Shown: positions 6,997 through 62,701, counted from the stretch's first letter. The stretch is 64,000 nt of DNA from Thiovulum sp. ES (GCA_000276965.1 AKKQ01000001.1:11129-75128); one strand, 5' to 3'. Numbers and translations are program-made. The notes: generated by a model not told the origin, from the sequence alone.

Positions 6997-7016
6997 TTGT
7001 CGGATTTTTCCGACAA
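6997..7016. terminator. Bidirectional hairpin TTGTCGGA-tttt-TCCGACAA (family member a)
   Basis: Perfect 8-bp stem between convergent argJ and the hydrolase gene. A/T runs flank both sides. Confidence 0.65.
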
Positions 7017-7019
7017 AAT

Positions 7020-7526
7020 CTAAATTAAAAAGTGTCCTCGATTTTTCAAAAAACAGACTTTTCCAAATTGTGAAAAAAATTCTCGAGCCTCTTGTGAATC
7101 GATAATTTTATCTTCACCACCAAGAAAAACTTCAATTTCAGTTCCACGATTTTTGATATTTTCTAAAACCTCATCGCTCCATTTAAAAGTTAGAAGCTCT
7201 TCCAGCTCTTCTATTTTTCCATCAACTTTTTCAACTTCTAAAATCTCGTTTGGATAAAAAATATTTTTAAAGAAATTTTGAGAATAGAGTTCCGAATTTT
7301 TACGAAATGAGATTAGTTGGAGTCGAATAAATTTTTCGCTCTTATTTTGAAAAAAAGCTGGTGAAAAAAGTTGTAGTCGGTCAATTCGCTTTTCGGTTTC
7401 TAAAACATATTTTAAAGCTTTTATTGCTCCGTAGCTAAATCCTGCAACTGTAAATTCAGACTCTTTTAAAAACTCACCAAAATATTTATGCTCATTTTGT
7501 AATTGGAATCCGCTAAAGAATTGCAT
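7020..7526 (-). CDS. Small lid-less alpha/beta hydrolase (possible BioV/BioG-like esterase)
   Basis: GFSYG nucleophile elbow (GxSxG) and a late His (RGHFLI). At 168 aa it has no lid. The specific esterase assignment is a guess. Confidence 0.45.
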   Translation of the reverse strand: MQFFSGFQLQNEHKYFGEFLKESEFTVAGFSYGAIKALKYVLETEKRIDRLQLFSPAFFQNKSEKFIRLQLISFRKNSELYSQNFFKNIFYPNEILEVEKVDGKIEELEELLTFKWSDEVLENIKNRGTEIEVFLGGEDKIIDSQEAREFFSQFGKVCFLKNRGHFLI

Positions 7527-8148
7527 TTAATCTCCTGTTAAAATAGATTGCTGTTAAAAACCCAATTGTTCCACCAACAATTATATCGCTCAAATAGTGA
7601 TTGCTTGTTGCAACTCTGCTAAATGCAAAAATTAATCCTGTTGAAAAGAAATAGTATTTCCATTTTGGAAAAGATATTGCAAAAACCGTTGCAATTGAGA
7701 GAGCTGTTGCCGAGTGTCCAGATGGAAAAGAAGCAAAAGATGAACTAAATTGTAAAAATTGAAATCCTTTTTCTCCAGTTTCAAAAAAGAGATATGGGCG
7801 AACTCTTCCAAAAATTGGTTTAAGAATATTTACAAAAATTCCTGAAAATAAGACTGAAAGATAAAGCAAAAGAGCAGTTCGACTAACAAATATTCTCACA
7901 CACTCCTCTTTAATAAAAGTTGCAAAAGTCCGAATGCAAAAACCGTTTCTAAAAACAAAAATAAAATAGATCATAATTGAGCAAAGAATCCAACATGTAG
8001 ATTTCACAAAATCTGTAATTAGCTTAAAAAAATCTCTAATTTCAGGAAGAAAGTCATATTTCACAAATTCAGCAAGTGGGTAATCGATCGATTTGATTAT
8101 CATCAAAATTGTTAGGGTGTAGAGAACTACACCATAAAATCGAATCAT
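7513..8148 (-). CDS. PAP2-family lipid phosphatase (membrane)
   Basis: PAP2 motifs KPIFGRVRP, PSGHS and SRVATSNHYLSD. Multiple TM helices. Confidence 0.8.
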   Translation of the reverse strand: MIRFYGVVLYTLTILMIIKSIDYPLAEFVKYDFLPEIRDFFKLITDFVKSTCWILCSIMIYFIFVFRNGFCIRTFATFIKEECVRIFVSRTALLLYLSVLFSGIFVNILKPIFGRVRPYLFFETGEKGFQFLQFSSSFASFPSGHSATALSIATVFAISFPKWKYYFFSTGLIFAFSRVATSNHYLSDIIVGGTIGFLTAIYFNRRLNAIL

Positions 8149-8151
8149 TTT

Positions 8152-9429
8152 TTATTTCAGAGCTTGATATGCGATGTCAGTCCTGAACTGTTTTCCTGCG
8201 AAATGAATTTGTCCGCAAAGCATGTAAGCTCGGTCTCGTGCTTCAGCAATTGAGTCTCCAAGTCCGACAGCTACAAGAACACGACCACCTGTTGCAAAAA
8301 GTTTTCCATCTTCAGCAGAAACTCCAGCAAAAGAGATGTGTGAATTTTCGGCAAGTTTTTCATGAACAATTTCATCAACAATAATTTCAGCAGGTTCAGA
8401 AGATTTGTAAGGATAATTTCCAGAAGCCATTACAACTCCAACAGAATATCGGTTTGAGATTTTAATATCGACCTCATCCAGTTTTCCAAGTGAAGCTTTA
8501 TGGAGAATTTCCAAAACAGAAGTTTCAATAAGTGGCATCAAAATTTCGCATTCAGGATCACCAAATCGAACATTGAATTCAAGAGTTAGTGGCTCACCAT
8601 TTACAACCATAATTCCCGCAAAAAGAACACCACGGAAAAGATTTCCATCACTCTCCATACCTTTTAAAGTTGGTGCGATAATTCGGTCTTCAATTTTTTT
8701 GTAAAGTTCATCGTCGATTAGTGGAGTTGGTGCATAAGCTCCCATTCCACCAGTATTTGGACCTTTGTCATCAGTCAAAAGTCGTTTGTGATCTTGTGCT
8801 GCGGGAAGAATTTTGAAACTTTTACCATCAGAAATAGCAAAAACAGAGAGTTCATAGCCGTCAAGAAATTCCTCAACAATCACTTTTTTACCTGCATCGC
8901 CAAAAAGATCACCGCTGAGCATTTCACGAATTGTCTCATTTGCTTTTTCATGGCTTTCTGCGATAATTACACCTTTTCCGCCACAAAGACCGTCTGCTTT
9001 TACAACAATTGGAGTTGGTAAATTTTTAGAAAATTCAATAGCCTCTTCTGCCGATGAGGTCTCGATAAATCGTGCTGTTGGAATTCCGTGTTTTTTCAAG
9101 AAATTCTTCATGAAAACTTTAGAACCCTCAAGTTGTGAAGCATTTTTAGATGAACCAAAAATTGTTAAACCTCGACTCTCAAAAATATCAACAATTCCAT
9201 CAACAAGCGGTTGTTCTGGTCCAACAATTGTAAAACCAATTCCTTCGCTTTCAACAAAATCCGCAAGTTTTTGGAAATCTTTGATGTCAATATTTTCGCC
9301 TAAATTTGCAGTTGCACCATTCCCAGGGGCGAAATATAATTTTTTTACTCTCTCATCTTTTTGGACCGCAAGAGCAATTGAATATTCTCGACCACCAGCA
9401 CCAACAATTAAAACTTTTTCTAAATTCAT
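8152..9429 (-). CDS. purD: Phosphoribosylamine-glycine ligase
   Basis: Full-length PurD pattern (VLIVGAGGREYSIA, ATP-grasp, GGRVL). Confidence 0.95.
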   Translation of the reverse strand: MNLEKVLIVGAGGREYSIALAVQKDERVKKLYFAPGNGATANLGENIDIKDFQKLADFVESEGIGFTIVGPEQPLVDGIVDIFESRGLTIFGSSKNASQLEGSKVFMKNFLKKHGIPTARFIETSSAEEAIEFSKNLPTPIVVKADGLCGGKGVIIAESHEKANETIREMLSGDLFGDAGKKVIVEEFLDGYELSVFAISDGKSFKILPAAQDHKRLLTDDKGPNTGGMGAYAPTPLIDDELYKKIEDRIIAPTLKGMESDGNLFRGVLFAGIMVVNGEPLTLEFNVRFGDPECEILMPLIETSVLEILHKASLGKLDEVDIKISNRYSVGVVMASGNYPYKSSEPAEIIVDEIVHEKLAENSHISFAGVSAEDGKLFATGGRVLVAVGLGDSIAEARDRAYMLCGQIHFAGKQFRTDIAYQALK

Positions 9430-9488
9430 TTTTTTCTTTTGTAGTTTGATTTATTTAGTATTTTAACATTTAAGGTTGTGAGAGAGTT

Positions 9489-9508
9489 TTGTCGGATCTC
9501 TCCGACAG
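9489..9508. terminator. Hairpin TTGTCGGA-tctc-TCCGACAG (family member b)
   Basis: Lies 4 nt downstream of the kamA-family stop. Stem of 7-8 bp. Confidence 0.6.
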
Positions 9509-9511
9509 TTT

Positions 9512-10753
9512 TTAAAGTTCGACCTCTTTCATGTCATCTAACCATGTAGCAGTATCATTCAATTCTCTAACAAGAATTCTTGAAGCCTCTTCAGGAAATT
9601 CTGGTCTAGCATGAATTTGACTCATTACAAGTTTATTTCCAGTTCGTCCAACAATTTCAATTTTTCCAATATCATGACCCATGATAAATTTAAATCGTTT
9701 TGCGTATCCATCAAGTCGTCTTTTTACATTTGAAACCATATCAACTCCCTTTTTTAACGGAACTTGAAATTGCTTCGCAACATGTGCAACTGGCATTGTT
9801 TGGTAGAGGTAGTATGGATTTACACCAATCCGAATAAGACCATTCATTAAATCCTCTAAAGCCTCTTCAGAATCATTCACCCCTGCTAAAAGAACTGCTT
9901 GATTATTCACAGTAATTCCTGCATCTCTCAAATTTTTTACAGCAAGAGTAGTCTCTTTTGTAATCTCTTTTGGGTGATTAAAATGTGTCGGAACATAAAG
10001 TGTTTTATGCTGATTGAACTCTCGTAAAACTTCTAAAAGTTCTGGTTCAAAAAATCGGAGTGGATAAGTTAAAACAGCTCGGCTACCAATTCGGACATAA
10101 TTCAGATGTGGAATATCTTTTAAAAATCCGAGCATCTTTTTGATTCGTTCAGTTCCAAGAAGAAAAGGATCGCCACCAGAAATAATTACATTTGTAATTT
10201 CAGGATGATTTCGGATATATTTTGATGCCTCTTCAAAGTCATCAACAGTTTTATCCGTTTCTAAACCAACAAGCCTTTTTCTGAAACAGTGCCGACAATA
10301 CATTGGACAATATTCAGTTGCGACAACAAGAGCAGAATATGGATATTTGTGTAAAACTCCATTTCCTTTGTCATGTTTGTCATCTCCATATGGATCATCA
10401 GTCGTGCCTTCTCCATCAACAAGTTCATCAGAAGTTGGAACTGCCAATTTTTTAATTGGATCATTCTCATCATTTGGATCAATCAGACTTAAGTAGTAAC
10501 GGGGAATATTTATTGGGTGATTTTCTGAGATTTTTTGGAAATCTTCTTCTTCTTTTGGAGAGAGCTTAAAATATGTTTTCAACTCTTCAACAGTTGTTAC
10601 ATTTCTTTTTTGCTCTTCTTTCCAATTTAATTTAGTCCAATCTATGTTGGACAAACTGGGGAGTGGATCAACGGTTTTCGTTTCTGTATGTAAAATAATT
10701 TTTCCTTTCATTTTGTAAAGTTGAATCGATCCTAACAAAATCAACTTAAACAA
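9512..10753 (-). CDS. KamA-family radical SAM aminomutase (lysine 2,3-aminomutase-like)
   Basis: CPMYCRHCFRKR radical-SAM cluster motif in KamA context. The listed start is a TTG; ATG at 10711 (MKGKIILH) is an alternative start. Confidence 0.8.
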   Translation of the reverse strand: MFKLILLGSIQLYKMKGKIILHTETKTVDPLPSLSNIDWTKLNWKEEQKRNVTTVEELKTYFKLSPKEEEDFQKISENHPINIPRYYLSLIDPNDENDPIKKLAVPTSDELVDGEGTTDDPYGDDKHDKGNGVLHKYPYSALVVATEYCPMYCRHCFRKRLVGLETDKTVDDFEEASKYIRNHPEITNVIISGGDPFLLGTERIKKMLGFLKDIPHLNYVRIGSRAVLTYPLRFFEPELLEVLREFNQHKTLYVPTHFNHPKEITKETTLAVKNLRDAGITVNNQAVLLAGVNDSEEALEDLMNGLIRIGVNPYYLYQTMPVAHVAKQFQVPLKKGVDMVSNVKRRLDGYAKRFKFIMGHDIGKIEIVGRTGNKLVMSQIHARPEFPEEASRILVRELNDTATWLDDMKEVEL

Positions 10754-10992
10754 TTATTAGTTTTTAGAATTATTCTCTATCTAATTTTGAGAGATAATTT
10801 CTCTCTAAAAATTTTAAATTGCAATTAAAAATCTTTTCTAGTAAAATTCGGTTAATTAAAACTTCAAAAAAACTCTTCTTAATCAAATTTAAGAAAACTG
10901 CTTTCGAGGAAAATGGTCAAACTTCCAAATTTTTTTTAGAATAATCTGCTCTTAAAAAAACCTCATCGCAAAATCAAAGGAAATTTATAAAT

Positions 10993-12321: not shown

Positions 12322-12330
12322 GATTTATTT

Positions 12331-13620: not shown

Positions 13621-13624
13621 ATTT

Positions 13625-13645
13625 TTGTCGGATTTTTTCCGACAA
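13625..13645. terminator. Bidirectional hairpin TTGTCGGA-ttttt-TCCGACAA (family member c)
   Basis: Perfect 8-bp stem between convergent hisD and rsmE. Confidence 0.65.
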
Positions 13646-14311: not shown

Positions 14312-14312
14312 A

Positions 14313-17044: not shown

Positions 17045-17119
17045 TGGCTCCGGATACTGGATTCGAACCAGTGACCAAGCGGTTAACAGCCGCCTACTCT
17101 ACCGCTGAGCTAATCCGGA
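17045..17119 (-). tRNA. tRNA-Asn (GTT), CCA encoded
   Basis: Minus strand reads tccggat..gctcagcggt..; anticodon loop ct-GTT-aa; T arm ggttcgaatcc; acceptor 7 bp followed by gCCA. Confidence 0.9.
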
Positions 17120-17188: not shown

Positions 17189-17210
17189 GGGTTTTTTGTA
17201 AATTACAAAA

Positions 17211-17229
17211 GTCGGAAAAAAATCCCGAC
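17211..17229. terminator. Degenerate member of the GTCGG/CCGAC hairpin family (d)
   Basis: gtcgg-aaaaaaatc-ccgac lies immediately downstream of the trpB stop. Only a 5-bp stem. Confidence 0.4.
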
Positions 17230-17236
17230 AAAAAAA

Positions 17237-18433
17237 TTAAAGTTCTAAGAGTTTTTGAGCCTGAACCATATCTTTATCACCACGACCAGAAAGATTTAAA
17301 ATTACTGTTTTTCCTTTTAATTCCTCTTTTGCTTTTTTAAGATATGCGACACCGTGAGCAGTTTCAAAAGCAGGAACAATTCCCTCTTTTTGAGAAAGCC
17401 AAACAAAAGCATCAATTGCCTCTTTGTCTGTAATTGAATCATATTTTACAGTGCCATTGTCTTTATGAAAAGAGTGCTCTGGTCCAATACCTGGATAGTC
17501 AAGTCCTGCGGAAATAGAGTGAGCTTCCAAAATTTGCCCGTCATCATCTTGTAAAAGATAACTCATTTGACCATGAAGAACTCCCGCACGACCTTTTTGC
17601 AAACTTGCTCCATGTTTTTCAGTATCTAAACCGTAGCCACCTGCTTCAATTCCAACACATTGCACCTCATCGTCCTCTAAAAACGGGTGAAAAAGTCCAA
17701 TCGCATTACTACCGCCACCAATTGGAGCGATGACATAATCGGGAAGTTTGCCCTCTTTTTCTAAAATTTGGTTTCTTGCTTCAGTTCCAATAATAGCTTG
17801 GAAATCCCGAACCATCATCGGATACGGATGAGGTCCTGCGACTGTTCCAATAATATAGAAAGTGTCTCGTGCATTTGTAACCCAATCTCGTATCGCATCA
17901 TTCATTGCATCTTTCAGAGTTTTGCTACCGCTTTGAACTGCATGAACTTTTGCACCGAGAAGCTTCATTCGGAAAACATTTAAAGATTGTCTCTCAACAT
18001 CTTTTGCACCCATAAAAATTTCACACTCTAAACCAAGAAGTGCCGAAATAGTAGCAGTCGCAACACCGTGTTGTCCCGCACCAGTTTCCGCAATTACTCG
18101 CTTTTTCCCAAGTCGTTTTGCAAGTAATCCCTGTGCGATTGTGTTGTTGATTTTATGTGCACCTGTGTGATTTAAATCTTCCCGTTTGAGATATATTTTT
18201 GCACCAATCTCTTCAGATATATTTTTTGCAAAATAGAGTGGAGTTTCCCGACCAACATATTCACGAGAATATTCTGCAACTTCTTTCCAAAACTCTTTGT
18301 CAAAACGAATCTTTTCATACTCTTTTTCAAGTTCTAGTAAAACTGGCATTAGTGTTTCAGGAACATATCGACCACCGAAAATTCCAAAATGCCCATTTTC
18401 TGGATCAAATTTACTTTTTTTAGGAATATACAT
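17237..18433 (-). CDS. trpB: Tryptophan synthase beta chain
   Basis: Full TrpB pattern ([17 protein letters not shown]). No trpA is adjacent. Confidence 0.95.
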
Positions 18434-20236: not shown

Positions 20237-20692
20237 ATGGAAGAAAAATTAACAAAAGCCCAGAAAATTCTGGTTGATTTTCATCAAAAATTTGAGCTTT
20301 TTAAAGGAATGAACACAAAAGAGCTTCTTGCTGTTGTTGAAAAAGTTCGATTTATCAAACTTGAAAAAGATGAAAAGATTTTTCAAAAAGGTCATACTGG
20401 AAAAGAGTTCTTTTACATAATTGACGGAAGTGTTTCTATTTTAGTTGATGGAAATTTACGAGTTGCCCTTTTGAATAGAAAGACTTTTTTTGGCGAAATG
20501 GCATTTATTACAAAAAAACCTCGAAATGCTTCAGCTTTTGTGGAGAGTGATCAAGCAACACTTCTTGTTATAAATATCAAAGATACAGTTGAACCAACTG
20601 AACCAGAAGCATTCTCAAAACTTTATAAAAATATAAGCGAAGTTCTTGTTGATAAAGTTGAGGAGATGAATAGAAAATTGACAATTTTATAA
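20237..20692 (+). CDS. Stand-alone cyclic-nucleotide-binding domain protein
   Basis: cNMP-binding fold strings (FFYIIDGSV, FFGEMAF, RNASA). Confidence 0.7.
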   Translation: MEEKLTKAQKILVDFHQKFELFKGMNTKELLAVVEKVRFIKLEKDEKIFQKGHTGKEFFYIIDGSVSILVDGNLRVALLNRKTFFGEMAFITKKPRNASAFVESDQATLLVINIKDTVEPTEPEAFSKLYKNISEVLVDKVEEMNRKLTIL

Positions 20693-30773: not shown

Positions 30774-30803
30774 TCCCCTTTTGGGGAAGAAATTCATAAA
30801 CTC
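30774..30803. repeat. Hairpin CCCCTTTTGGGG plus tail AAATTCATAAACT (copy 2 of 2)
   Basis: tccccttttggggaagaaattcataaactc. Differs from 1962-1990 by a 2-nt indel and the end bases. Marks the left edge of the R-M islet. Confidence 0.6.
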
Positions 30804-34023: not shown

Positions 34024-34052
34024 AGTTTCCCAAAAAGGGGAAAGAAGAGATA

Positions 34053-34067
34053 CCGAAACAAGTTCGG
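34053..34067 (-). terminator. fusA terminator hairpin CCGAA-acaag-TTCGG
   Basis: Starts 12 nt downstream of the fusA stop on the minus strand. A second hairpin TTTCCC/GGGAAA at 34026-34043 follows the endonuclease stop. Confidence 0.45.
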
Positions 34068-45504: not shown

Positions 45505-45834
45505 ATGGCAAATGTTTCACCTCTTGGAAATCAGATTTTTATAAATCAGAATATGCATATTGCGAGTAATAAAGTTGCAAACCATCTCTCTCGGCTCACT
45601 GCTCAAGATGTTATGAATTCTGAAAGTTACGAAGAGAATTGCAAACGACTTACAGATACTCGAGACCCTGAAAAAGTTAATGAGATTGATGAAAATCTAA
45701 TTGAAGATGCTGTTTATAGTGTTAAGAAAAAGTATAAGCGACAAGAGGGTGAAAAAGGGGAGGACGATGAGGTCGAAAAAGAGAAAAAACACCTCATCGA
45801 TGAGAAACGAAAGAAGATCGATATTACAATTTAA
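45505..45834 (+). CDS. Hypothetical charged small protein
   Basis: 109-aa ORF following MTHFS by 4 nt. Lys/Glu-rich C-terminus. No family recognised. Confidence 0.5.
   Translation: MANVSPLGNQIFINQNMHIASNKVANHLSRLTAQDVMNSESYEENCKRLTDTRDPEKVNEIDENLIEDAVYSVKKKYKRQEGEKGEDDEVEKEKKHLIDEKRKKIDITI
45765..45799. terminator. Hairpin built from two inverted copies of the over-represented motif (CGATGAGGT-N17-ACCTCATCG)
   Basis: 9-bp perfect stem. On the minus strand it lies 25 nt after the MCP stop and is followed by a T5 run (cccctttttc). It sits inside the last 70 nt of the 109-aa ORF. Confidence 0.4.
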
Positions 45835-48362: not shown

Positions 48363-48382
48363 TGTCGGAATTTTTTCCGACA
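48363..48382. terminator. Bidirectional hairpin TGTCGGAA-tttt-TTCCGACA (family member e)
   Basis: Perfect 8-bp stem between the convergent SOR-like gene and the PBP gene. Confidence 0.65.
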
Positions 48383-50226: not shown

Positions 50227-50646
50227 TTAAATTTTCCAATCTTTTGAAAGTGTCTTTTTTAAAAGCAGAAAATCCTCTTTTCCAAGCTCTTTTTCTATCT
50301 TCTCCTCAACTCTATTTATAATTTTTTCTCGTTTTTCCAACATCTCAATTCCAAAAGGTGTCAATTTAACAATTTTTACTTTTCTGTTTTTTTCAGAATT
50401 AACAAGTTTGACAAATCCATCCTCTTTTAAAATATGAACACTTTTGTGAATTGTTTGACGACTCACACCAAGCTCTTTTGAGAGTTCTGAAATAGAGTAG
50501 TCTCCGTCATACTTTAACAGGGTGTAAATTCTTGTGCCTGTAACCATATTCCTATACTTTATCCCATCTGCTTCTGCTTCAGAGAGAGAGAGTTTCTCAA
50601 CAATGTTAAATTTTTCTAATAAAAGATATTTAATATCATAATACAT
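50227..50646 (-). CDS. MarR-family winged-helix regulator
   Basis: YSISELSKELGVSRQTIHKSVHILKEDGFV. Confidence 0.7.
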   Translation of the reverse strand: MYYDIKYLLLEKFNIVEKLSLSEAEADGIKYRNMVTGTRIYTLLKYDGDYSISELSKELGVSRQTIHKSVHILKEDGFVKLVNSEKNRKVKIVKLTPFGIEMLEKREKIINRVEEKIEKELGKEDFLLLKKTLSKDWKI

Positions 50647-50751
50647 TATATTTCCTTGACATATTTTCTTTATTCTTGTATTATGTCAGTCTGATTGACA
50701 AATAAATTGTGGAATTCTCTACAAACCACAATCTAAAATTAAAGGGAAATT

Positions 50752-51282
50752 ATGGCACATATAGATTTACCAGAATTTGAGGAGATGTCTCCAAAAATTC
50801 AAGAGTTAGCAAGACCAATTTTAGAAAGAAGCGGAGACCTTGGCGAAATTTTTAAGCTTTTAGCAATTCGTGAAGACATCTATTTTGCAACTGATGGAAT
50901 GGTTCAAAATTACCTCATCAAAGAGACAGAACTTAGTTATGACATTAAAGAATCAATCGCTCTTCTTGTTTCAGTCGAAAACGGCTGTAAAATGTGTGTT
51001 GGAGTTCATAAAAGTATCGCAAAAATGCTTGGTGTTTCTGAAGAGAGAATTGAGCAAGTTCTTTCTGGTGTAGATAATATTGATGCTGAAGATAGAGAAA
51101 AAGAGCTTTTAAGATTTGCAATTCGATCTTCTAAAAAAGACAGCTATAAAATTCTCAAAGAAGATATTGACCATTTAAAAGATTTGGGATACAGCGAAAC
51201 TCAAATTATTGAATGTGTTGCAATTGTGGGATATTTTAACTATATAAATACTATATCAAATGTTTTTGCTTTGGGAGAATAG
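50752..51282 (+). CDS. Carboxymuconolactone decarboxylase / AhpD-like family protein
   Basis: The CxxCxxxH motif (CKMCVGVH) is typical of AhpD-like proteins. Divergent from the MarR gene. Confidence 0.7.
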   Translation: MAHIDLPEFEEMSPKIQELARPILERSGDLGEIFKLLAIREDIYFATDGMVQNYLIKETELSYDIKESIALLVSVENGCKMCVGVHKSIAKMLGVSEERIEQVLSGVDNIDAEDREKELLRFAIRSSKKDSYKILKEDIDHLKDLGYSETQIIECVAIVGYFNYINTISNVFALGE

Positions 51283-51291
51283 TTTTAAAGT

Positions 51292-51367
51292 GGTGTCAAG
51301 AGAGAGATTTGAACTCTCGACCTCCGGCTTATGAGACCAGCGCTCTAACCAACTGAGCTACCTTGAC
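51292..51367 (-). tRNA. tRNA with CAT anticodon (elongator Met, or Ile2 if lysidine-modified), CCA encoded
   Basis: Minus strand reads gtcaagg-ta-gctcagttggttagagc...ct-CAT-aa...gagagttcaaatctctc-ccttgac-a-cca. Confidence 0.85.
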
Positions 51368-51414: not shown

Positions 51415-51423
51415 AAAATTGAT

Positions 51424-51445
51424 TTGTCGGAATAAAATCCGACAA
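51424..51445. terminator. Hairpin TTGTCGGA-ataaaa-TCCGACAA (family member f)
   Basis: Perfect 8-bp stem starting 5 nt downstream of the M14 gene stop. Confidence 0.65.
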
Positions 51446-51449
51446 AAAA

Positions 51450-54020
51450 TTAGCTTGAGTAGTAGTAGATAATCTTTGGTTCTGAAAAATTTGGCACATT
51501 ATCGTAAGTAAAAACTGCATAGTATTTACTTCGGTCAAGCGAACCAAAGTTGTCATATGTAAAATTGTCTGTTCCACCATAAAGTTTCACTCCATCAGAA
51601 AAGTTTTTTGGTGGATGAAATGAATTCCGCACAACATAACAGCCAGAAAAATCTTCATCTTTTGGATTCTCCCAACTCAATTTAATCATTCCATTTTCAA
51701 CAGAAGTAGATAAATTTGATACTGGTGAAATCGGTTTTTTTCGTCTCTCAATATATTTTAAAACAAGCTTTGGCTCGACCCAACTCATTCTCATTTTTTT
51801 TGTATCATCATTTGGAGAAGAAGCACGAATTATAATTTTTATATGACTCTCTTTTGAGTGAAATTCATCAAGTTTTTTTCTCAGATTGCTGTCAAAAATA
51901 AAAAACTTCTTGCTACCTTCACCAATGTCAAGGTTTGAGACTTCATAGCCGATAAAGTCGATTTTTTCTCTATGTAGAATTGAGTCGTAATCTTCGATAT
52001 TTTCAATATCAACAAGCTCAAGATAAAAACGAATATCTTCACGATTTTGCATCGTGCCTCGTGCTTTTATCTCAACATGTGCCTCTGTAATAACAGTTGT
52101 TTCTGGATTTGGCAAACTCTCTGCAACATCAAATTCCACGAGTCCATAAATACGATCCCCGTTTCCATCAAAACCGACAGAAATTTTATTATCCTCAAAA
52201 GAGCTTCGCGAAATTGTCGAAGTTCTGTTTGGTTCAATTGCCATTTCATTTGACGGAATTTTATATTTTATATCCAAATATGGTCGGTATTCAAGTCCGC
52301 CACCAAATTGCCCATAACCAATGTCAAATTGCATCATTTGAGAATCTTCACCGAGTGGTAGAGTCTTTGGACCTTCCAATTTAAAAACAACTTTTCCTTT
52401 TGAAAGTGCTTTTTGAAAAATTTTCGATTCTAAATATGAGAAATCCCAACTATTCCAAATTCCTTGAGTTAGATTTTCAGATTTCAGAGCATCACCAACG
52501 ACAGCAAGAGTTTCAGCTTTTTCAACCTCATCGAAATTGTAAATATCCGTAATTGTGTCAATATTCAAAAGTGAAATATTCCACTCACCATATTTTTCAA
52601 TTTTTGCACCAACTCTGTTCATCGGATATAGGAAAAGTGAAGCAGAAACAACCTTTGCATTTTCAGGGAGAGCCTGAACTGAAAAAGAGAGAAGTGAAAT
52701 TGAAACACCCTTGTTCTGATTTACCCCAACAAAAAGTGAATTCAAACCAAAATGCTTCTGATTATCTTCAGATTTTTGAGAGATGTATCCAATTTCATTT
52801 TTAATCGGAAAGAGTTTTTTTGAGAATTCATCATTTTGTAAAAGTGTAGTTACTCGAACAACTGGAGCAAATGGAGATTTGATTTTTGTTTTCAAATTCA
52901 CAACCCTAATTGTGTAAAAGTAGAGTGTTCCGCTCTCCAATTGCACATCTGTAAAAGTTGTAACTTTTGTCATTCCAATTCTTGTACTCTCTTCACAAGC
53001 CTCTTTGTCTCGACGATTTCTGTAAATCTCAAAATATATGTCATCTCGAACTTCATAATTCCAAGAAAATGTAATCTCTTTAGATTCCACTTTTGCAATT
53101 GAAAAATTATCTACTCGTTTTGGTGCAAGTTTTGAATAATTTATTGTCTCAGAAAATGCTTTTAAGAGTGCAGGAATATTCTCATTGATACTTTCAGTCA
53201 TGCTTTTCGCATAGTCTGGAATATTTTTTGTTCCAACCTCCACAACTGTTGCGAGAATTCCTCGACTGTAATAAAACTCACGACCGCTACCTGAAATAAG
53301 ATGAGTAGGTGGTTTTCCTCTGTGAATTCCATATGTTCGTCCAGAAACTTTTTTGATTTCATGATTCATGTTTGCACAGAGAATATTTAAATCTGAACCA
53401 TCGATTTCCGCTTCGTGTCGGAATTTATGAGCAGGAAAAAAGACATTTCCTTGAGAGTGATAATCCAGAGCAATTGTAATATTTTGGTGAGATTCCACAA
53501 AATCACGAATAGCACTTGTTTCAGGTTCAGAAAAAGCCTCTTCTCCACCGTAAATATTTGAGCTTTTGTCTTTTGTTTTTGTGAAACCGATTCCAAAGTT
53601 TCGATTTAAATCAACTCCATAACTTCCGTCAGAGTTTTTTCGCCGATTTTTTCTCCAAAATGAGAAGTGCTTTCGCGAATATTCAAAACCGTCTGGATTT
53701 AGAGTTGGAACAATGTAGAGAGCAGAATTTTGCAAACTCTTTTCTAATCGCGGATCAAACTGGTAATTTTGCAAAATATAATCCACAAATTTTATAGAGA
53801 GTTCATTTCCAATCCACTCTCTTGCATGAATTGTTCCTGTATAAAGTAAAGCTGGTTTTGTATCCGCAGTTGCAACATCAAGAGAGAGCGTCGCAAGAAT
53901 TATGTCTCTATTTTCGTGAGTTTTCCCAATAACTGAAACAGAAAGAAGATTTGGAAACTCCTCCGCTTTTTGTCGAAAAAACTGGAGTGTTTCATCATAT
54001 GAATAGTATTGTCTTTTCAA
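51450..54020 (-). CDS. Large M14 zinc carboxypeptidase-domain protein with FN3-like modules
   Basis: The N-terminal M14 domain has GTIHAREWIGNE and DYHSQG. FN3-like segments are present (ITFSWNYEV..., IKLSWENPKDEDFSGCYVVRN). No obvious signal peptide. Confidence 0.75.
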   Translation of the reverse strand: MKRQYYSYDETLQFFRQKAEEFPNLLSVSVIGKTHENRDIILATLSLDVATADTKPALLYTGTIHAREWIGNELSIKFVDYILQNYQFDPRLEKSLQNSALYIVPTLNPDGFEYSRKHFSFWRKNRRKNSDGSYGVDLNRNFGIGFTKTKDKSSNIYGGEEAFSEPETSAIRDFVESHQNITIALDYHSQGNVFFPAHKFRHEAEIDGSDLNILCANMNHEIKKVSGRTYGIHRGKPPTHLISGSGREFYYSRGILATVVEVGTKNIPDYAKSMTESINENIPALLKAFSETINYSKLAPKRVDNFSIAKVESKEITFSWNYEVRDDIYFEIYRNRRDKEACEESTRIGMTKVTTFTDVQLESGTLYFYTIRVVNLKTKIKSPFAPVVRVTTLLQNDEFSKKLFPIKNEIGYISQKSEDNQKHFGLNSLFVGVNQNKGVSISLLSFSVQALPENAKVVSASLFLYPMNRVGAKIEKYGEWNISLLNIDTITDIYNFDEVEKAETLAVVGDALKSENLTQGIWNSWDFSYLESKIFQKALSKGKVVFKLEGPKTLPLGEDSQMMQFDIGYGQFGGGLEYRPYLDIKYKIPSNEMAIEPNRTSTISRSSFEDNKISVGFDGNGDRIYGLVEFDVAESLPNPETTVITEAHVEIKARGTMQNREDIRFYLELVDIENIEDYDSILHREKIDFIGYEVSNLDIGEGSKKFFIFDSNLRKKLDEFHSKESHIKIIIRASSPNDDTKKMRMSWVEPKLVLKYIERRKKPISPVSNLSTSVENGMIKLSWENPKDEDFSGCYVVRNSFHPPKNFSDGVKLYGGTDNFTYDNFGSLDRSKYYAVFTYDNVPNFSEPKIIYYYSS

Positions 54021-55074: not shown

Positions 55075-55176
55075 TTCAAATTCCCTTTTTTAAAATTCTA
55101 ACAGAGAAAACCATAATTTAAAAAGATGATTATCGTTTGTCGATTCTCTTAATCTACCATAGTTTAAGGAAAAATT

Positions 55177-58100: not shown

Positions 58101-59043
58101 TGGAAAAATTATATTTCTCGGAACGACCTCATCGGACTTAGAAGGCTTTCACATGTATAGCGGAGATATTGATGAACGGTATCCAACACCATCAAATATT
58201 GATGGAACAACTTATGTAAAAGATATAACTGTTTATACGGACTACAAAACAAGCGGTAGTGAATATTGTTATGATGAAGATGGTAGCGGTGCTGGTTGTG
58301 CTTCCGGCTACACTTATGGAATGGATTTATATGTTCGCAGTAACATTTATGGAAAAGAGAGTGAAGTTGGTGATTATGGTGTTACGGGAAATGCAAAAGT
58401 TTATGACTATGAATCTGACTCTGTTGGATATGTTGAAAATACGACCGATGATTTGGCAACTCTCTATTTCTTAACTTACAATATTTGCGAAGATGCCCCA
58501 GATTTTGATACAAATAATACAGGTTGGAAATTTGTCGCATACGATGGAAGTGGAACAGTTTCAAATATTCAGTTTCTCCCAGACTGGTATGCAATTTATA
58601 AAAATGCCTCAATTCTTGCTACAAATGATGATATTGAAACAGATCAAGCACCTCGACTTTATGATTCAGATTGCGAACCTGCTTCTTCTAATAGTGTAAA
58701 AGATAATGGTGTTGTTTTGATAGATACAGATTTGACTGATGAGACAAATATCTCAATTGCATATGAAGATATAACTTCTGCTTCAATTACACAAGCACAT
58801 GCAAACCGATTAGGAAATGTTTATATTCAATACAAAGGTTTTGATGTTGCAAGAATACAGTATTCCGCATCTCATTATCTTTCGACATACAACGGTGGAG
58901 AAGAAAAAACAATTCTTTTTGATTTAAACAACACAATGATTTTTGCAACAACTTTTGATGATTTGAATAGTTCAAATATTTTTGATTTAGACGACTCCGC
59001 AATTCAACTAGAAAGCAACCAAAGTATTATGAAGGCATATTAG
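55177..59043 (+). CDS. 1288-aa secreted Asp/Asn/Ser/Thr/Gly/Tyr-rich surface protein, unknown family
   Basis: Signal peptide MKKLFVYLFLTLSLFS (TTG start). FG-GAP/EF-hand-like Ca motif DLDLDGDVDSVLLV and a second DLDGDTG. Almost no Lys/Arg-rich or hydrophobic segments. Confidence 0.75.
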   Translation: MKKLFVYLFLTLSLFSNELVEIYLPDGEWKLIGVPGPFYEGSSSADTFSSTDWYEAKDLNAGDTYIALTDTAGTVSICDEDSDVLCFSLEDSNYEVIFASEVDNDNIDTYIPRREMFVSFDGGVDMNISYQADLEGNPFEIKLFSSASSYEFYEGVLNSSYGYSNPAYLTVKTGTSSTYTMDLRNDSIIDWNLSNNPGKRGQEGELSDYEEANDRDAIDLSRDEYLQLYWLNSVGGYWEIFNSGYSDTYNDFTEIESGKGYWARTNNAINGETGLILGDGNISSSTYNSRLAEGWNLLSFPNGKIRESATGLIVSTTTNIATNKTFTITDEFGTESIEIEMLQIDSTNEIVVAINSQIAGAIEDGNLSEDFNIRAFALNDSTNSNAKFMLLSDKRFRLYDSTDNVIDEVNTTGEQNPYSLYDYSYDGISDLDANGTMSRYGEYMLLVVPPNDGDGFLEGVDGKVQVNTNTAIDMNGLTEIPEFATAMEADDDIDRAIPVDLDLDGDVDSVLLVNKDEPFYIRDATFTKIYRVDDTGHNGATIYFNNGMDDDNFSSFSVANGDSAGTIATTFAGESFGSMIEDSSGDYIYLTTTNPSLKNFDLYDYESDDIFTRIISMSDNEVIGAIKAVYSVSELAKADVNKSVYISNITTNSPSGKYVSVKIDGEETTFTSVGTGAGNICIELASQINELDVPVYAECDSTNTADDDSNLTITGYFTQAGIKSDGAAGNKIELDGGGDTTYDYSPDFGSAGIGGSTQNTSNYLTSDLRYRAIYTPDFPTEETSLSYIREHNYSVAKMLTAVNNVDGSTISWKFIDLTADEDYWFSKNNGFDLFDIEQERGYFAFLDEKNSSEIGITSSLDLEFSQRFNNDNNNSGFAKAGEVLNLPSGTLKVELSGDEGNQTRVIATIQGTDYRMTQGTSSYSLSIDLENMPNLYQWDSNITISAYDLDGDTGTEQVELNLSAPATPVFGFFEHGKIIFLGTTSSDLEGFHMYSGDIDERYPTPSNIDGTTYVKDITVYTDYKTSGSEYCYDEDGSGAGCASGYTYGMDLYVRSNIYGKESEVGDYGVTGNAKVYDYESDSVGYVENTTDDLATLYFLTYNICEDAPDFDTNNTGWKFVAYDGSGTVSNIQFLPDWYAIYKNASILATNDDIETDQAPRLYDSDCEPASSNSVKDNGVVLIDTDLTDETNISIAYEDITSASITQAHANRLGNVYIQYKGFDVARIQYSASHYLSTYNGGEEKTILFDLNNTMIFATTFDDLNSSNIFDLDDSAIQLESNQSIMKAY

Positions 59044-59639
59044 TGGTTTTTTACGATTCCAACTACAATTTTTTAAAAGTAGAGGAATCGCTTTTTAAAA
59101 CTTTAAAATTTGATTCTGTAAATACGATGAGGTCGGAAATTGGAAATGACTTCTCAAATCTATTCTACAAATCAAAATTTCATATTCATAAATTTGAGAA
59201 TATCTGTTGGCTTGAATTTCTTCTTCAAAATAGTGGAAAAGCGATTTTGCAATTTGGAGACGGAAATCTTTACAAAACAGATTTAAATGCGAAAAAATTA
59301 GAAAAGAATTTTGTAGTTCAAATTGGAGAAACTTTAGAATTTATTGAAATATCAAAAATTGATAAAAATGAGTTTGAGAAGTTTTTCCAAATTTTTAAAA
59401 ATAGTGAAAATGAAATTCTTGAAAATTTAAATAAAAATGATTTCAGAAAAGTCCAGCAAAAAATTTTTGCATTAAAAAGATATTTTGTATTTTTTGATGT
59501 TCTTGAACTTAAAAATTATATCTATAAAATTGTTGATGAATTGGAAAAAGAGTCTCCAAATTTTAGAGAAATCACTTTTTGGTGGCTCGATTTTTCAGAA
59601 ATAGCTGAAGACACAAATCAATCTTTTAAATCTCTCTAA
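59043..59639 (+). CDS. Hypothetical 198-aa cytoplasmic protein, translationally coupled to the giant gene
   Basis: The GTG start overlaps the TAG stop of the upstream gene (taGTG). No family recognised. Confidence 0.5.
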   Translation: MVFYDSNYNFLKVEESLFKTLKFDSVNTMRSEIGNDFSNLFYKSKFHIHKFENICWLEFLLQNSGKAILQFGDGNLYKTDLNAKKLEKNFVVQIGETLEFIEISKIDKNEFEKFFQIFKNSENEILENLNKNDFRKVQQKIFALKRYFVFFDVLELKNYIYKIVDELEKESPNFREITFWWLDFSEIAEDTNQSFKSL

Positions 59640-59680
59640 GTAAAATTTAAGTAGAATGTGGGACTACAAATTTCTTCTGG

Positions 59681-61474
59681 GTGTTTTATTTGGATATATT
59701 AGAAAATCTTTTACGAGTTAGAGTTTTAGAAAATTCGCTTTTAGCAAAAAAATACGGTTTCAACGAAAAAGAGGTCGCCGTTTTCAAGTATTTAATAAAA
59801 AATTATATAATTGAAAATAGTGAGGGAGTTCAGATTGAGACAATTTTAAAAGAAGTTTTTCAAGTTACATCTTTAAGTAAAAAACTTGAAGAGATAGAAG
59901 TTTTACGAAATCTTTACATTCAAGACTACATTGATATTGGAAGTAGTGGACTTTTCAGTTTTGAACCCAATTTTAAAACTGAAAGAGAAAAACAGCCTAT
60001 TCTTGAAATTTTAAATGGAAGTGCTTCACTTTCAAATAGATTTTTATTAATGCTTGAAGACAGAGAAAACGAAGAAACAAAAATTATTGACGAGCCTTAT
60101 TCCGATAATTATGAATATCTTGTTGATAAATTTACAAAGTTGGAACTTTTTTTAAAAAGAGATGGTTTAAAAACTATTAGAGAACGAGCTTTTGAAATTG
60201 ATAAAAAAATAGAGAGCCGAATCGCAAAAACTGAAATCAAATTTGGCTTAGAAAATATTCTTGAAAGATATAAAATCGATTTTGATGAAGAGATAATTAT
60301 TTTGGCAATTCTTTCTGAAGAGTTCAAATATTTTCAAACAGAGCAAAAATTGAAAGAACTCCATAATTTAGCAGAGTTAATTAGCTTAACTCCTCTAGAA
60401 AAATTGAAAAATCAAAGCACAATTTTCAAAAGACTAGTAGAAGATTCTGAAATTTTCAAAATTGAGAAGCAAGTCGAATATGTTTATGAAGAGAAAGAGA
60501 CAGGTGAAAAAGACACTGTCTATTACATTGGTCTTGCTAATGGGATTTTGGAAGAGATTAAAACAGGTAAAAAAGCTGAACCTGAAAATGAAGAAGAGAA
60601 AAAACGAACTCTTTTAAAAGATATAGTTGAAGAAGATGAGCAATTTGAACTTGTTGTTCCTGAAAAAGGTCTCGATGAGGTTACTCTTTCAAAAGATACT
60701 CGAAAAGTTTTGGATACGGTTGTTAAGCAACTTGATGAAAATGTGGTGAAAAGACTTCAAGAATGGGGAGTTCAAAAAGAGGGAAAAGGCATTAGTGCTA
60801 GAATTATTTTCCACGGAGTGCCAGGAACTGGAAAAACCTTAACAGCAACAGCATTAGCAAAAGAGCTTGGAAAAGAGCTACTTCATTTTGACTCATCAAA
60901 AATAGTTTCAATGTATGTTGGTGAAAGTGAAAAAAATGTTCGTGGAATTTTTGACTCATACAAAAATATTGTGGAAAAGACTGGACTTCAACCTGTTCTA
61001 TTTTTAAATGAAGCGGATCAATTTTTAACAGGTCGTTCAACTGATTTAGGTGGAAACAGCTCTATCTCTCAAATGTATAATCAGATGCAGAATATTTTTC
61101 TTGAGCAAATTGAAAATTTTGAGGGTGTTTTAATCGCAACTACAAATATTTTGGAAAATATTGATAAGGCATTTTCACGACGATTTAATTACAAAGTTGA
61201 ATTCAAATTACCAAATGAAGAAGAGCGAATTGAGATTTGGAAACATCACTTGCCTAAAAATGCACCATTTGAGAAAAAATTTCAAGTCGAAGAACTTGCA
61301 AAATATAAATTGAGTGGTGGTCAAATTGATTTGGTTGTTAAAAACACAGCTTTTCATATGGCAACTGAAAAAAAACCACTTTTTACAACTGAGAGTTTTA
61401 AAAAAGAGATTGAACGAGAGATAAAAAGTAGTTTTGACAGTCAGAAAATTATGGGCTTTTTAACAGGTTCATAG
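59681..61474 (+). CDS. Classical-clade AAA+ ATPase with ~350-aa unknown N-terminal region
   Basis: Walker A GVPGTGKT, MYVGESEKNVRGIF, Walker B VLFLNEADQF and the second region of homology AFSRRF. GTG start. Confidence 0.85.
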   Translation: MFYLDILENLLRVRVLENSLLAKKYGFNEKEVAVFKYLIKNYIIENSEGVQIETILKEVFQVTSLSKKLEEIEVLRNLYIQDYIDIGSSGLFSFEPNFKTEREKQPILEILNGSASLSNRFLLMLEDRENEETKIIDEPYSDNYEYLVDKFTKLELFLKRDGLKTIRERAFEIDKKIESRIAKTEIKFGLENILERYKIDFDEEIIILAILSEEFKYFQTEQKLKELHNLAELISLTPLEKLKNQSTIFKRLVEDSEIFKIEKQVEYVYEEKETGEKDTVYYIGLANGILEEIKTGKKAEPENEEEKKRTLLKDIVEEDEQFELVVPEKGLDEVTLSKDTRKVLDTVVKQLDENVVKRLQEWGVQKEGKGISARIIFHGVPGTGKTLTATALAKELGKELLHFDSSKIVSMYVGESEKNVRGIFDSYKNIVEKTGLQPVLFLNEADQFLTGRSTDLGGNSSISQMYNQMQNIFLEQIENFEGVLIATTNILENIDKAFSRRFNYKVEFKLPNEEERIEIWKHHLPKNAPFEKKFQVEELAKYKLSGGQIDLVVKNTAFHMATEKKPLFTTESFKKEIEREIKSSFDSQKIMGFLTGS

Positions 61475-61518
61475 CCTGAAACTTTTTGATAGGATTAAAA
61501 AAATATAGGAGAATCTTT

Positions 61519-62676
61519 TTGATTTTTACATCACCTTTAAAAGAGAATAGTAAAAAAATCATGCTACTTGGAAGTGGCGAACTTGGAAAAGAGGTCGCAA
61601 TCGAGGCTCAAAGATTGGGAATAGAAGTTGTTGCAGTTGATAGATACGAAAATGCTCCAGCCCACCTTGTAGCAAATCGTAGCTATACAATTGACATGAA
61701 AAATCGAGAACAGCTTTTAGAAATTATTCAGAAAGAGAAACCTCATCACATTTTGCCTGAAATCGAGGCTATAAATATTGATGCACTTTTAGAAGTTGAA
61801 AAAATGGGATTTGAAGTTATTCCAAATGCCGAAGCGGTTCATAAAACGATGAATCGAAAAAATATCCGAAAATTTGCAAACGAAGATTTAGAAATTCCGA
61901 CAAGCAAATACTTTTTTGTGAAATCATTTGAAGAGTTAGAAAAGTCTGCGGAAACTCTCGGTTTTCCAGTTGTGATAAAACCAGTTATGAGTTCGTCAGG
62001 ACATGGTCAAAGTATTGCAAAAACAAAAGAGGATTTAGCAGAATCTTGGAGAATTGGAAAAGAGGAAGCTCGGGGCGATAGCAGTGAATTGATTGTCGAA
62101 GAATTTATAAAATTTGATTATGAAATCACTCTTTTGACAGTTCGGAACGGAGTTGAGACCACTTTTTGCGAACCGATTGGGCATATTCAGAAAGATGGAG
62201 ATTATATTTTTTCATGGCAACCGATGGAAATGAGTCAAAAAGCTATCGAGAAAAGCAAGGAAATTGCACAAAAAATTACTGACGGATTGGGTGGTCGTGG
62301 TCTTTTTGGAGTTGAACTTTTTGTTCGTGGCGATGAGGTCTGGTTTTCTGAAGTTAGTCCGCGACCACATGATACGGGAATGGTTACACTAATTACACAA
62401 TCTCAAAGTGAGTTCGCCTTGCATGTCCGAGCTGTTTTAGGTTTGCCAACTGAACATCTCTTTTTTGGTTCTGGAATTAGTGGAGCTTTTAAAACTGAAA
62501 AAGAACACGACTCTGATATTGAAGTTCCAAACGAGGCTTTTTCAAAAAACTCTTTTTTCCGAGTATTTGGAAAACCAGAAGCACACAGCGGTAGGCGAAT
62601 GGGAGTCTATTTGGCACTTGGTGAAATTAAAACAGAGTTGGAAAAAGCAAAAGAGATTTTAAAAAATACAAAATAA
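61519..62676 (+). CDS. purT: Formate-dependent phosphoribosylglycinamide formyltransferase
   Basis: [16 protein letters not shown] and an ATP-grasp body. TTG 61519 lies 7 nt after TAGGAG and matches PurT N-termini better than TTG 61486. Confidence 0.9.
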
Positions 62677-62681
62677 AATAT

Positions 62682-62701
62682 TTGTCGGGTGATTCCGACA
62701 A
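62682..62701. terminator. Hairpin TTGTCGG-gtgatt-CCGACAA (family member g)
   Basis: 7-bp stem between the purT stop and the stop of the minus-strand 89-aa ORF. Confidence 0.6.

Follow-up and report, generated by a model that had tools for sequence, protein, structure and literature searches.

REP/BIME elements, described in Enterobacteria and Pseudomonas and mobilised by RAYT proteins, are short, species-specific palindromes that lie outside genes, mostly at 3′ ends and between converging genes, in many dispersed copies. They are selectively maintained, and can stabilise RNA 3′ ends or terminate transcription. The dRS3 repeat of Neisseria is a 20-nt sequence (ATTCCC-N8-GGGAAT) that flanks larger repeat arrays (NIMEs) and serves as a prophage integration site. 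A further comparison is offered by the uptake sequences of Neisseria (DUS) and Pasteurellaceae (USS), inverted pairs of which form terminators, so that the same stem with a variable spacer recurs at many unrelated gene ends, with weak T tails and about half of converging junctions occupied (Kingsford et al., 2007; PMC1852404).

Here we describe a family of hairpins with a shared stem in Thiovulum sp. ES, within a window of 64 kb (the whole stretch of DNA that was analysed). To judge from sequence, the chances are about even that they are gene-end RNA hairpins, either terminators or 3′-end barriers, derived from a lineage-specific, dispersed palindrome of ~20 nt. The family is most likely a lineage-specific repeat of a broadly familiar kind and not a new type of element.

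The shared stem and its placement

Seven hairpins of the family lie in the window: six are perfect, with the core TGTCGG-loop-CCGACA, and the seventh is degenerate. This is far more than expected by chance, and a sequence-only reading of this DNA had placed all seven correctly (Table 1). The exact form TTGTCGGA-N3-8-TCCGACAA occurs three times (6997, 13625, and 51424), and any match to it was absent from all 100 dinucleotide-preserving shuffles of the window. In a search with the 7-nt arms TGTCGGA / TCCGACA, mismatches are absent from five copies (6998, 9490, 13626, 48363, and 51425), the copy at 62683 has one, and that at 17210 has 1 + 1; the remaining 14 matches with three or fewer mismatches resemble noise, with simulated sequences giving a mean of 9.1 matches in total and a maximum of 14. 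On both strands together, the 7-mer TGTCGGA appears 24 times against 4.0 ± 1.9 expected. The window has 10 perfect hairpins that are G+C-rich (four or more G/C pairs in a stem of 7 bp or longer), and six of these belong to the shared-stem family. Different stems were also claimed for other terminators, and these are present, with CCCCTTTTGGGG at 1964 and 30775 and CCGAA..TTCGG at 34053.

Across the copies, only the columns TGTCGG(A) and CCGAC are invariant. Since the flanking sequences show no relation to one another, the repeat unit is the ~20-nt palindrome alone. The sequence-only reading had described one stem with differing loops, which holds for the stem; the loops are not arbitrary, five of the seven being oligo-T/A runs of 4–6 nt. 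Two stems also depart slightly from its account: at 9489-9508 the second arm ends in G (TCCGACAG), giving seven Watson-Crick pairs plus a T·G pair, and the stem at 62682 has 7 bp, or 8 when a G·U pair on the + strand is counted. The stem at 51424 reaches 9 bp when extended to 51423-51446. The sample is small, at seven copies in 64 kb together with 43 kb of DNA from a sister population.

Each copy has the stop of a − strand gene within 0–7 nt, and for three of the seven a + strand stop is also just 4–5 nt away. Four are at converging gene junctions, with gaps of 25–53 nt, and half of the converging protein-gene junctions in the window (4/8) bear a hairpin, while none of its nine divergent intergenic regions carries one. 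Two copies occupy the space directly between the end of a gene and a tRNA promoter close to consensus, a classic terminator position: the copy at 17211 is upstream of a promoter matching at 12/12 positions (17188-17160; tRNA 17048-17119), and that at 51424 is upstream of a promoter-like site matching at 11/12 (51414-51386; tRNA 51294-51367).

Table 1. Hairpins of the shared-stem family in the window, with their gene context and their state in the sister population (ES, Thiovulum sp. ES; a point marks a copy assigned to neither strand).
Hairpin (arm-loop-arm)	Position	Strand	Gene context	Sister population
TTGTCGGA-TTTT-TCCGACAA	6997..7016	.	Exact match; occupies the 28 nt that separate argJ (+, stop 6991) from bioV (−, stop 7020), which converge	Identical (L247:12414-12433)
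TTGTCGGA-TCTC-TCCGACAG	9489..9508	.	3 nt past stop of KamA-like radical SAM gene (−, 9512-10753); 59 nt upstream of purD	Missing
TTGTCGGA-TTTTT-TCCGACAA	13625..13645	.	Occupies the 25 nt that separate hisD (+, stop 13620) from rsmE (−, stop 13646), which converge	Identical (L247:7037-7057)
GTCGGGA-TTTTT-TCCGAC, then TTTTGTAATT (degenerate; − strand)	17211..17229	−	7 nt past stop of PLP-dependent enzyme gene (−, 17237-18433)	Only the TCCCGAC arm kept; other arm differs at 3/6 bases
TGTCGGAA-TTTT-TTCCGACA	48363..48382	.	Between desulfoferrodoxin-like gene (+, stop 48333) and ftsI (−, stop 48387)	Stems identical, loop longer by 1 nt, region just 84% identical (L253:11781-11801)
TTGTCGGA-ATAAAA-TCCGACAA	51424..51445	−	4 nt past stop of 856-aa gene (−, 51450-54020)	Stems identical, one loop substitution (L253); identical to ES (L255)
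TTGTCGG-GTGATT-CCGACAA	62682..62701	.	5 nt past stop of purT-like gene (+, 62676); 4 nt before stop of 89-aa hypothetical ORF (−, 62706-62975)	

A proposed role at RNA 3′ ends

The stems fold with energies of about −9.7 to −12.7 kcal/mol, with the hairpin at 6997 giving −11.8 kcal/mol on the + strand and −12.6 kcal/mol on the − strand. The degenerate copy at 17211 has a G·U pair, and hence the better hairpin, only on the transcribed strand (−9.8 kcal/mol on the − strand vs −6.9 kcal/mol on the + strand). With no variation at any core pair, the stems show zero covariation, so palindromy alone points to the hairpin structure. Between the 7-nt arms the spacing ranges over 4–7 nt, which speaks for a folded hairpin rather than a dimer operator; an operator for a dimeric regulator in double-stranded DNA is unlikely, given this spacing and the lack of any copy in the divergent (promoter) regions.

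On the − strand, five of the seven copies pass a loose T-tail rule, compared to 24.5% of intergenic positions (binomial P about 0.01). The copies at 6997 and 62682 carry a terminator-like flag on this strand, and the hairpin at 48363 is followed on it by TTTTTGGGGA. None of the four + strand gene ends at hairpins passes the rule, and the copy at 9489 passes only on the + strand, which has its T-run and where no gene ends. On most of the relevant strands, U-tracts are weak or absent. The hairpins are like ordinary intrinsic and bidirectional terminators in being G+C-rich stem-loops right past the stop, common to converging genes and, in five of the seven copies, with a T-rich tail on one strand, but unlike them in two respects. 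An ordinary terminator requires a stem but no particular stem sequence, and in related genomes the stems at such sites differ; the A-tract/U-tract symmetry expected of a bidirectional terminator is missing at most copies.

We propose that the perfect ~20-nt palindrome, with a loop of 4–6 nt that is mostly oligo-A/T, may be the standard gene-end hairpin of ES and its sister. Upon transcription of either neighbouring gene, the RNA would fold into an 8-bp stem-loop straight past the stop codon. Where the T-rich tail is present, the hairpin would act as an intrinsic terminator, and where it is absent, as on the + strand of converging pairs, it would most likely form a barrier to 3′-exonucleases following Rho-dependent termination; the window encodes both Rho and RNase Y. 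Since the hairpin could act on either strand, one element might serve both converging genes in this very compact genome. We infer a function in termination or stabilisation at the RNA level. A role resting on structure alone would not account for identical stems at unrelated loci. That identity could come from copying and pasting of the ~20-nt unit in either orientation, or from a factor that reads the stem.

If the gene-end RNA reading is right, a large share of ES genes end with one shared 20-nt hairpin, with perhaps ~230 copies in 2.08 Mb should the density of the window hold. The hairpin would then be a simple operon-end marker for an uncultured organism with a very compact genome, and would offer a clean natural case in which to ask if terminator-type hairpins are open to selection on sequence as well as shape.

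Conservation in a sister population and the source of stem identity

A sister population with ~89–94% identical DNA, recovered from independent metagenomes, keeps four of the hairpins (6997, 13625, 48363, and 51424) at the same junctions, and all of their stem bases are identical (64/64), compared to 89.8% identity in other non-coding DNA (P about 1e-3). Two loops and the flanks have changed without change in the stems; for example, three of the eight bases between the argJ stop codon and the stem differ, and the stop itself is TAA in ES and TGA in the sister. These comparisons support purifying selection on the stems, and in that respect they uphold the suggestion of a dispersed palindromic element at gene ends. 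At least five independent JGI metagenomes yielded contigs in which these junctions carry the same hairpins. A relative whose genes are 84–88% identical yielded no copy of the family in 40 kb, and neither did the more distant Thiovulum loci examined. In L001, a more distant relative, the hairpin that follows hisD is unrelated, and two gene ends of one relative carry TTCGGG/CCCGAA, a stem core resembling that of the family. The comparison of ES, its sister, and species B suggests that a hairpin family of this sort can emerge and reach fixation inside a species-level lineage.

Seven unrelated loci share an identical stem without compensatory changes, which is also what a DNA-level element would give, in which the palindrome is the target of a recombinase or HUH-type enzyme (REP/RAYT- or dRS3-like) and any effect on RNA is secondary. 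We regard this as rather improbable, although several observations favour it: the family is lineage-specific, the copies are perfect or nearly so with no tail of decayed copies, both orientations occur (as judged from the oligo-T loop), and the copy at 9489 lies 5 nt inside the edge of a gene-sized, 1241-bp segment (9484-10724) found only in ES. However, neither of the two remaining indels between ES and the sister ends at a hairpin, and a precise presence/absence polymorphism of the 20-nt unit, which would be proof of mobility, was not seen. Among the genes annotated in the window subset and in the sister loci, there is no RAYT (Y1/HUH) gene and no other transposase or recombinase gene.

The sequence-only reading had called the family REP/BIME-like, and this is apt for its behaviour, as the hairpins are dispersed, extragenic, located at gene 3′ ends, species-specific, and apparently selectively maintained. 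It is less apt for their form: with ~20 nt, a perfect stem of 7–9 bp, and a loop of variable length, they are shorter than known REPs and have no conserved tetranucleotide head (GTAG-type) or flank outside the stem. All copies in the window are solitary, with no adjoining direct repeats and no BIME/REPIN-like doublets or clusters, and the literature searched contained no REP family in Campylobacterota. The hairpins are thus REP-like in behaviour, with membership among REPs not established. With dRS3 they share a length of ~20 nt, a position outside genes, and short conserved inverted arms around a variable centre, but they lie right next to stop codons. Neither adjoining repeat units nor multi-copy matches in viral contigs were found that would tie them to repeat arrays or phage, although one copy is at the edge of the 1241-bp ES-only segment.

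An RNA-binding protein or RNase that reads the stem at the 3′ end in a sequence-specific manner, and so controls mRNA decay or termination, would make the identity a product of convergent selection and not of descent. This is unlikely. The gene-end placement fits such a protein, as does a stem whose sequence is conserved while loops and flanks drift, and with loop length also varying, the folded stem alone is constant. These data also fit common descent with purifying selection, however, and convergence on one 7–8-mer at seven sites would need very strong selection. There is no known candidate protein, and to our knowledge the proteins that bind terminator hairpins (e.g., the ProQ/FinO type) recognise shape rather than sequence. 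More tentatively than the gene-end RNA reading itself, we suggest that a dedicated reader that binds or cuts the hairpin, as an RNA end or as single-stranded DNA, could keep the stems identical, and would be an unseen REP/RAYT- or dRS3-like system of Campylobacterota, possibly marking the 3′ edge of movable single-gene segments such as 9484-10724.

The arms might instead be inverted copies of an uptake word, TGTCGGA[A], accumulated through biased uptake and recombination and co-opted as a terminator. Single TGTCGGA words within genes, counted on both strands, are enriched 3.3-fold (13 vs 3.9 expected; 0/500 synonymous-codon shuffles), and the occupancy of about half of the converging junctions together with weak T tails resembles the Neisseria terminators (PMC1852404). 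Type IV pilus genes are also reported for all Thiovulum genomes (PMC9938260). Our analysis nevertheless makes this origin very doubtful, and the earlier suggestion of a terminator-embedded uptake sequence is disfavoured. The single words are conserved between ES and the sister in 3/8 cases against a background of 57.6%, while the hairpin arms are conserved in 8/8. At just 0.2 per kb (13 in 60 kb of coding DNA), compared to about 1 per kb expected of uptake sequences, the arm word is not hyper-abundant as in DUS and USS systems, and it belongs to one species-level lineage, its frequency in species B and the distant Thiovulum loci not exceeding chance. A far stronger uptake-like word, (C)GATGAGGT(C), is present in the same genome.

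Finally, chance, base composition, or an artefact of assembly or amplification (chimeras from a single-cell-type assembly) could draw on the few G/C-rich words that a genome of 33% G+C offers for terminator stems, on the recurrence of a second hairpin type (CCCCTTTTGGGG), and on the similar stem core at two gene ends of a relative, but such an origin is refuted by the shuffles and the independent metagenome contigs, and it is further opposed by the 7–8-mer shared by six of the 10 strong hairpins, which marks a family defined by sequence as had been claimed, and by public scans, in which contigs with the pattern mostly had a single, scattered copy and none of them was Thiovulum-like.

A second repeated word

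The word (C)GATGAGGT(C) occurs in 57 copies in the window, on both strands, or about 1 per kb (0.9), and CGATGAGGT reaches 36 times its expectation. Between ES and the sister, 26 of 28 copies of the word are conserved. It is common to all Thiovulum loci examined, with dialect-like flanks in distant Thiovulum, and shows no enrichment in 21 kb of a Sulfurimonas genome. From its abundance, distribution, and conservation, the word behaves like a true uptake sequence, and it looks more novel than the hairpins; if it is one, it would represent a system outside the Neisseriaceae and Pasteurellaceae, and the uptake-sequence literature that we found names no family besides these. As an inverted pair at a gene end, it occurs just once in the ES window, at 45766-45798.

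Copy number and unit of the hairpin family

The positions of all seven hairpins of the TGTCGG-loop-CCGACA family in the sequence-only reading are correct. Searching for exact 8-nt arms around a loop of 3–8 nt gives three copies in the window, compared with none in 100 shuffles. Shortening the arms to 7 nt gives five perfect copies, another with a single mismatch and another with two, and weaker matches look like noise. The arm word TGTCGGA occurs 24 times in the window (4.0 ± 1.9 expected). Perfect hairpins whose stems reach 7 bp and include four or more G/C pairs number ten in the window, six of them from the family. The window itself is 33% G+C and carries housekeeping genes, including argJ, bioV, purD, rho, hisD, rsmE, the RNase Y gene and ftsI; the only known RNA families (Rfam) it yields are two tRNAs.

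The invariant columns among the copies are TGTCGG(A) and CCGAC only. The flanks have nothing in common, and no direct repeat, MITE, IS context or longer repeat was found around the hairpins, indicating that the unit is the ∼20-nt palindrome alone. Because the core pairs never vary, covariation among the copies is zero, and the data therefore show sequence selection or a recent common origin without proving structure. The loops do differ, as had been claimed, but are less diverse than implied, since five of the seven are oligo-T/A runs (4–6 nt), carried by the + strand at sites 1, 3 and 4 and by the - strand at 5 and 7. Such runs are prone to slippage, and the argument that different loops mark ancient copies was dropped for this reason.

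Coordinates of the hairpin family and of other features (window positions unless a locus handle is given; L251, species B; L002, distant Thiovulum; other handles, Proteobacterial loci)
Feature	Position	Strand	Details
Hairpin family, sites 1–7 (start)	6997, 9489, 13625, 48363, 51424, 62682, 17211		site 7 degenerate
Single TGTCGGA, 1–21 kb	5921, 6631, 8263, 18790, 20084		8263 in purD
tRNA gene	17048-17119	-	near-consensus sigma-70-type promoter 17188-17160, 12/12
tRNA gene	51294-51367	-	near-consensus sigma-70-type promoter 51414-51386, 11/12
CCCC-TTTT-GGGG hairpins	1964-1975, 30775-30786, 34026-34043, 36200-36214		gene ends
ATTCCCG-AAAAAGAAA-CGGGAAT hairpin	63094-63116		just past stop of thyX-like gene (-)
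ES/sister difference	9484-10724		1241 bp, KamA-like gene
ES/sister difference	20258-20667		151-aa ORF after RNase Y gene
ES/sister difference	50548-51195		most of AhpD-like gene
Species B gene-end hairpins	L251:15754-15773, L251:20187-20209		stems ATTCGGG..CCCGAAT and ATTTCGGGA..TCCCGAAAT, common core
∼230-nt element	L032:1431-1650, 7370-7590; L059:170-390; L062:847-1100; L186:13613-13835; L180, L020, L070
GATGAGGT, examples	785, 1086, 6842, 13063, 22023, 41349, 63722
GATGAGGT inverted pairs	2332-2364, 45766-45798		17-nt spacer
CGATGAGGT-cgtaaaa-ACCTCATCG hairpin	L002:14281-14305		9-bp stem, 7-nt loop

Placement, folding and tails

Each of the seven copies has the stop of a - strand gene 0–7 nt away, and three also have a + strand stop at 4–5 nt. 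A copy is present at four of the eight converging protein-gene junctions in the window (argJ/bioV, hisD/rsmE, desulfoferrodoxin-like gene/ftsI and purT-like gene/89-aa ORF), within gaps of 25–29 nt at three of them and 53 nt at the fourth, while the remaining three copies are in co-directional settings, each after a - strand gene. None was found in the nine divergent, promoter-bearing regions of the window. Sites 5 and 7 are directly upstream of strong tRNA-gene promoter matches, the classic position of a terminator, and both promoters begin a few tens of bases downstream of the hairpin.

The predicted RNA stems range from -9.7 to -12.7 kcal/mol, and the degenerate copy at site 7 folds better on the transcribed strand, where a G.U pair forms (-9.8 vs. 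-6.9 kcal/mol). Five of the seven copies satisfy a loose T-tail rule on the - strand, compared with 24.5% of intergenic positions (binomial P ∼0.01). At the converging pairs no copy passes the rule on the + strand, and at site 2 the T-run is on the strand where no gene ends. These data fit a gene-end hairpin acting at the RNA level; they do not fit a homogeneous series of canonical intrinsic terminators. The family's most likely role is that of an RNA 3′-end hairpin that either terminates transcription or blocks exonucleases. As Rho is encoded in the window, it is plausible that the tail-less copies would serve as a barrier to 3′-exonucleases after Rho-dependent termination.

A second type of gene-end hairpin, CCCC-TTTT-GGGG, occurs at four places in the window, and its copy at 1964 is conserved in the sister population. 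The two exact copies have the downstream flank GGGGAA..AAATTCATAAACT in common, and may therefore belong to a separate repeat of ∼30 nt.

Conservation in close relatives

The sister population (L247, L253 and L255) is represented by contigs from several JGI metagenomes (3300079457 and related samples), found through cluster and homologue look-ups, which are collinear with the window at 1–21 kb and 45.7–60.9 kb at 89–94% DNA identity. Sites 1, 3, 4 and 5 are kept at the same junctions with 64/64 identical stem bases, which has P ∼1e-3 given that non-coding DNA outside stems and tRNAs is 89.8% identical. Around the stems, change is evident: the region of site 4 is only 84% identical, its loop has one extra T, the loop of site 5 has one substitution, and at site 1 three of the eight bases separating the argJ stop from the stem have changed, with the stop itself TAA in ES and TGA in the sister. 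The sister contigs were obtained from independent samples, which rules out an artefact of assembly or amplification. At site 7 one arm is kept and the other differs at 3/6 bases, so that the sister has no hairpin there. Site 2 lies 5 nt inside a segment that is present in ES and missing from the sister. This segment is made up of the gene for a KamA-like radical SAM aminomutase, its short leader and, 3 nt beyond the stop, the TGTCGGA hairpin, and it occupies what in the sister is the divergent rho/purD promoter region. Two further gene-sized differences, at 20258 and 50548, have no hairpin at their ends.

Species B (L251; JGI 3300063006, contigs Ga0606389_000341 and Ga0606389_000116), a less close Thiovulum relative from one of the sister's metagenomes, is 88% DNA-identical in purD and 84% in hisD and has a different gene order. 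Its 40 kb contain no family copies, compared with ∼4 expected at the density of the window, and an unrelated hairpin follows its hisD. Two of its gene ends have TTCGGG/CCCGAA stems, one of them in a 31-nt converging gap. The different core common to the two is a hint that lineages may differ in the gene-end stem they favour. The family is absent from more distant Thiovulum loci as well. The sequence-only reading had named unrelated stems at syntenic loci in close relatives as a refutation, and the outcome depends on distance: very close relatives keep the stems while relatives one step further do not, which makes the family young and lineage-specific. The stems may be identical for either of two reasons. 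The ∼20-nt unit may have been copied and pasted, whichever way round, with its loop slipping afterwards, or a factor may read the stem.

Known repeat systems and uptake sequences

The family behaves like REP elements, but its membership of REP, uptake-sequence pairs or dRS3 is not demonstrated. It differs from REP/BIME elements in two membership features, having neither a conserved head or flank nor clusters. Neisseria dRS3 repeats are alike in form, with short conserved arms and a variable center, and apparently unlike in their context of repeat arrays and phage integration. A separate hairpin in the window, at 63094, has arms resembling the ATTCCC/GGGAAT arms of dRS3; as a single copy, this likeness is probably coincidence.

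The earlier suggestion of terminator-embedded uptake sequences fares less well. Single TGTCGGA words are over-represented in genes (13 vs. 3.9 expected, 3.3-fold, 0/500 synonymous-codon shuffles), but only 3/8 are conserved in the sister, compared with 57.6% of background 7-mers and 8/8 hairpin arms. All five single copies at 1–21 kb differ in L247, four of them at CpG, and the purD copy, common to species B, was thus lost in the sister, suggesting CpG-directed decay in that lineage. The arm word does not behave as a DUS/USS, and the hairpins are therefore probably not paired uptake sequences; what stands of the original interpretation is that a genuine palindromic family, under selection and confined to one lineage, occupies gene ends.

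Among the matches listed from scans of public genomes and metagenome contigs, most are isolated single copies in unrelated taxa and none is a Thiovulum-like contig. A phage origin is not supported, as the 103 stretches matched in viral contigs are almost all single-copy, with at most two per stretch, and none is Thiovulum-like. A few G+C-rich Beta/Gammaproteobacterial MAGs carry a repeated ∼230-nt element with two long hairpins capped by the family stem, TAGGAGYT-TGTCGGAC-loop-GTCCGACA-ARCTCCTA and TAGCAGCC-TGTCGGAC-loop-GTCCGACA-GGCTGCTA, enclosing a region closed by GCAAAACCGCCC / GGGCGGTTTTGC. It has no Rfam match and was discounted as probably a consequence of using that very stem as the search pattern. 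A dimeric operator is unlikely, given the variable distance between the arms and the absence of copies from promoter regions. A SECIS or recoding hairpin is rejected because in 6/7 cases the neighbouring - strand stop is TAA or TAG, and the hairpin begins 0–7 nt beyond the stop. A CsrA-type GGA site was set aside because the GGA is base-paired.

A k-mer scan found a much stronger word than TGTCGGA, GATGAGGT, with 57 copies (31 on the + strand, 26 on the - strand; consensus C-GATGAGGT-C/T) in 64 kb, where an order-2 Markov model expects ∼1. It lies mostly within genes, where sense copies encode Asp-Glu-Val. Shuffles preserving protein sequence and codon usage predict 8.7 genic copies (55 observed) and, for CGATGAGGT, 1.1 (41 observed). 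In the sister, 26/28 copies are conserved (53.6% background), and the positions in hisD and purD are common to ES, the sister and species B, whose hisD and purD are 84–88% identical. In distant Thiovulum the word lies elsewhere in the two genes; these relatives keep its density (0.56–1.08 per kb) and show different, dialect-like flanking bases. It also occurs in L001, L002, L004, L247, L251 and L253, and no other 8-mer is as over-represented in any Thiovulum-like locus; it does not rank first in Sulfurimonas marina, where 21 kb have two copies only. Judged by these patterns, GATGAGGT behaves as a DNA uptake sequence (DUS/USS), and it merits follow-up of its own. All Thiovulum genomes are reported to carry type IV pilus genes (PMC9938260), and a literature search found no paper on uptake sequences in this phylum. 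Head-to-head inverted pairs of GATGAGGT occur twice in the window, one of them at the overlapping ends of converging genes, and in a distant Thiovulum a CGATGAGGT/ACCTCATCG hairpin between converging genes resembles DUS/USS-pair terminators.
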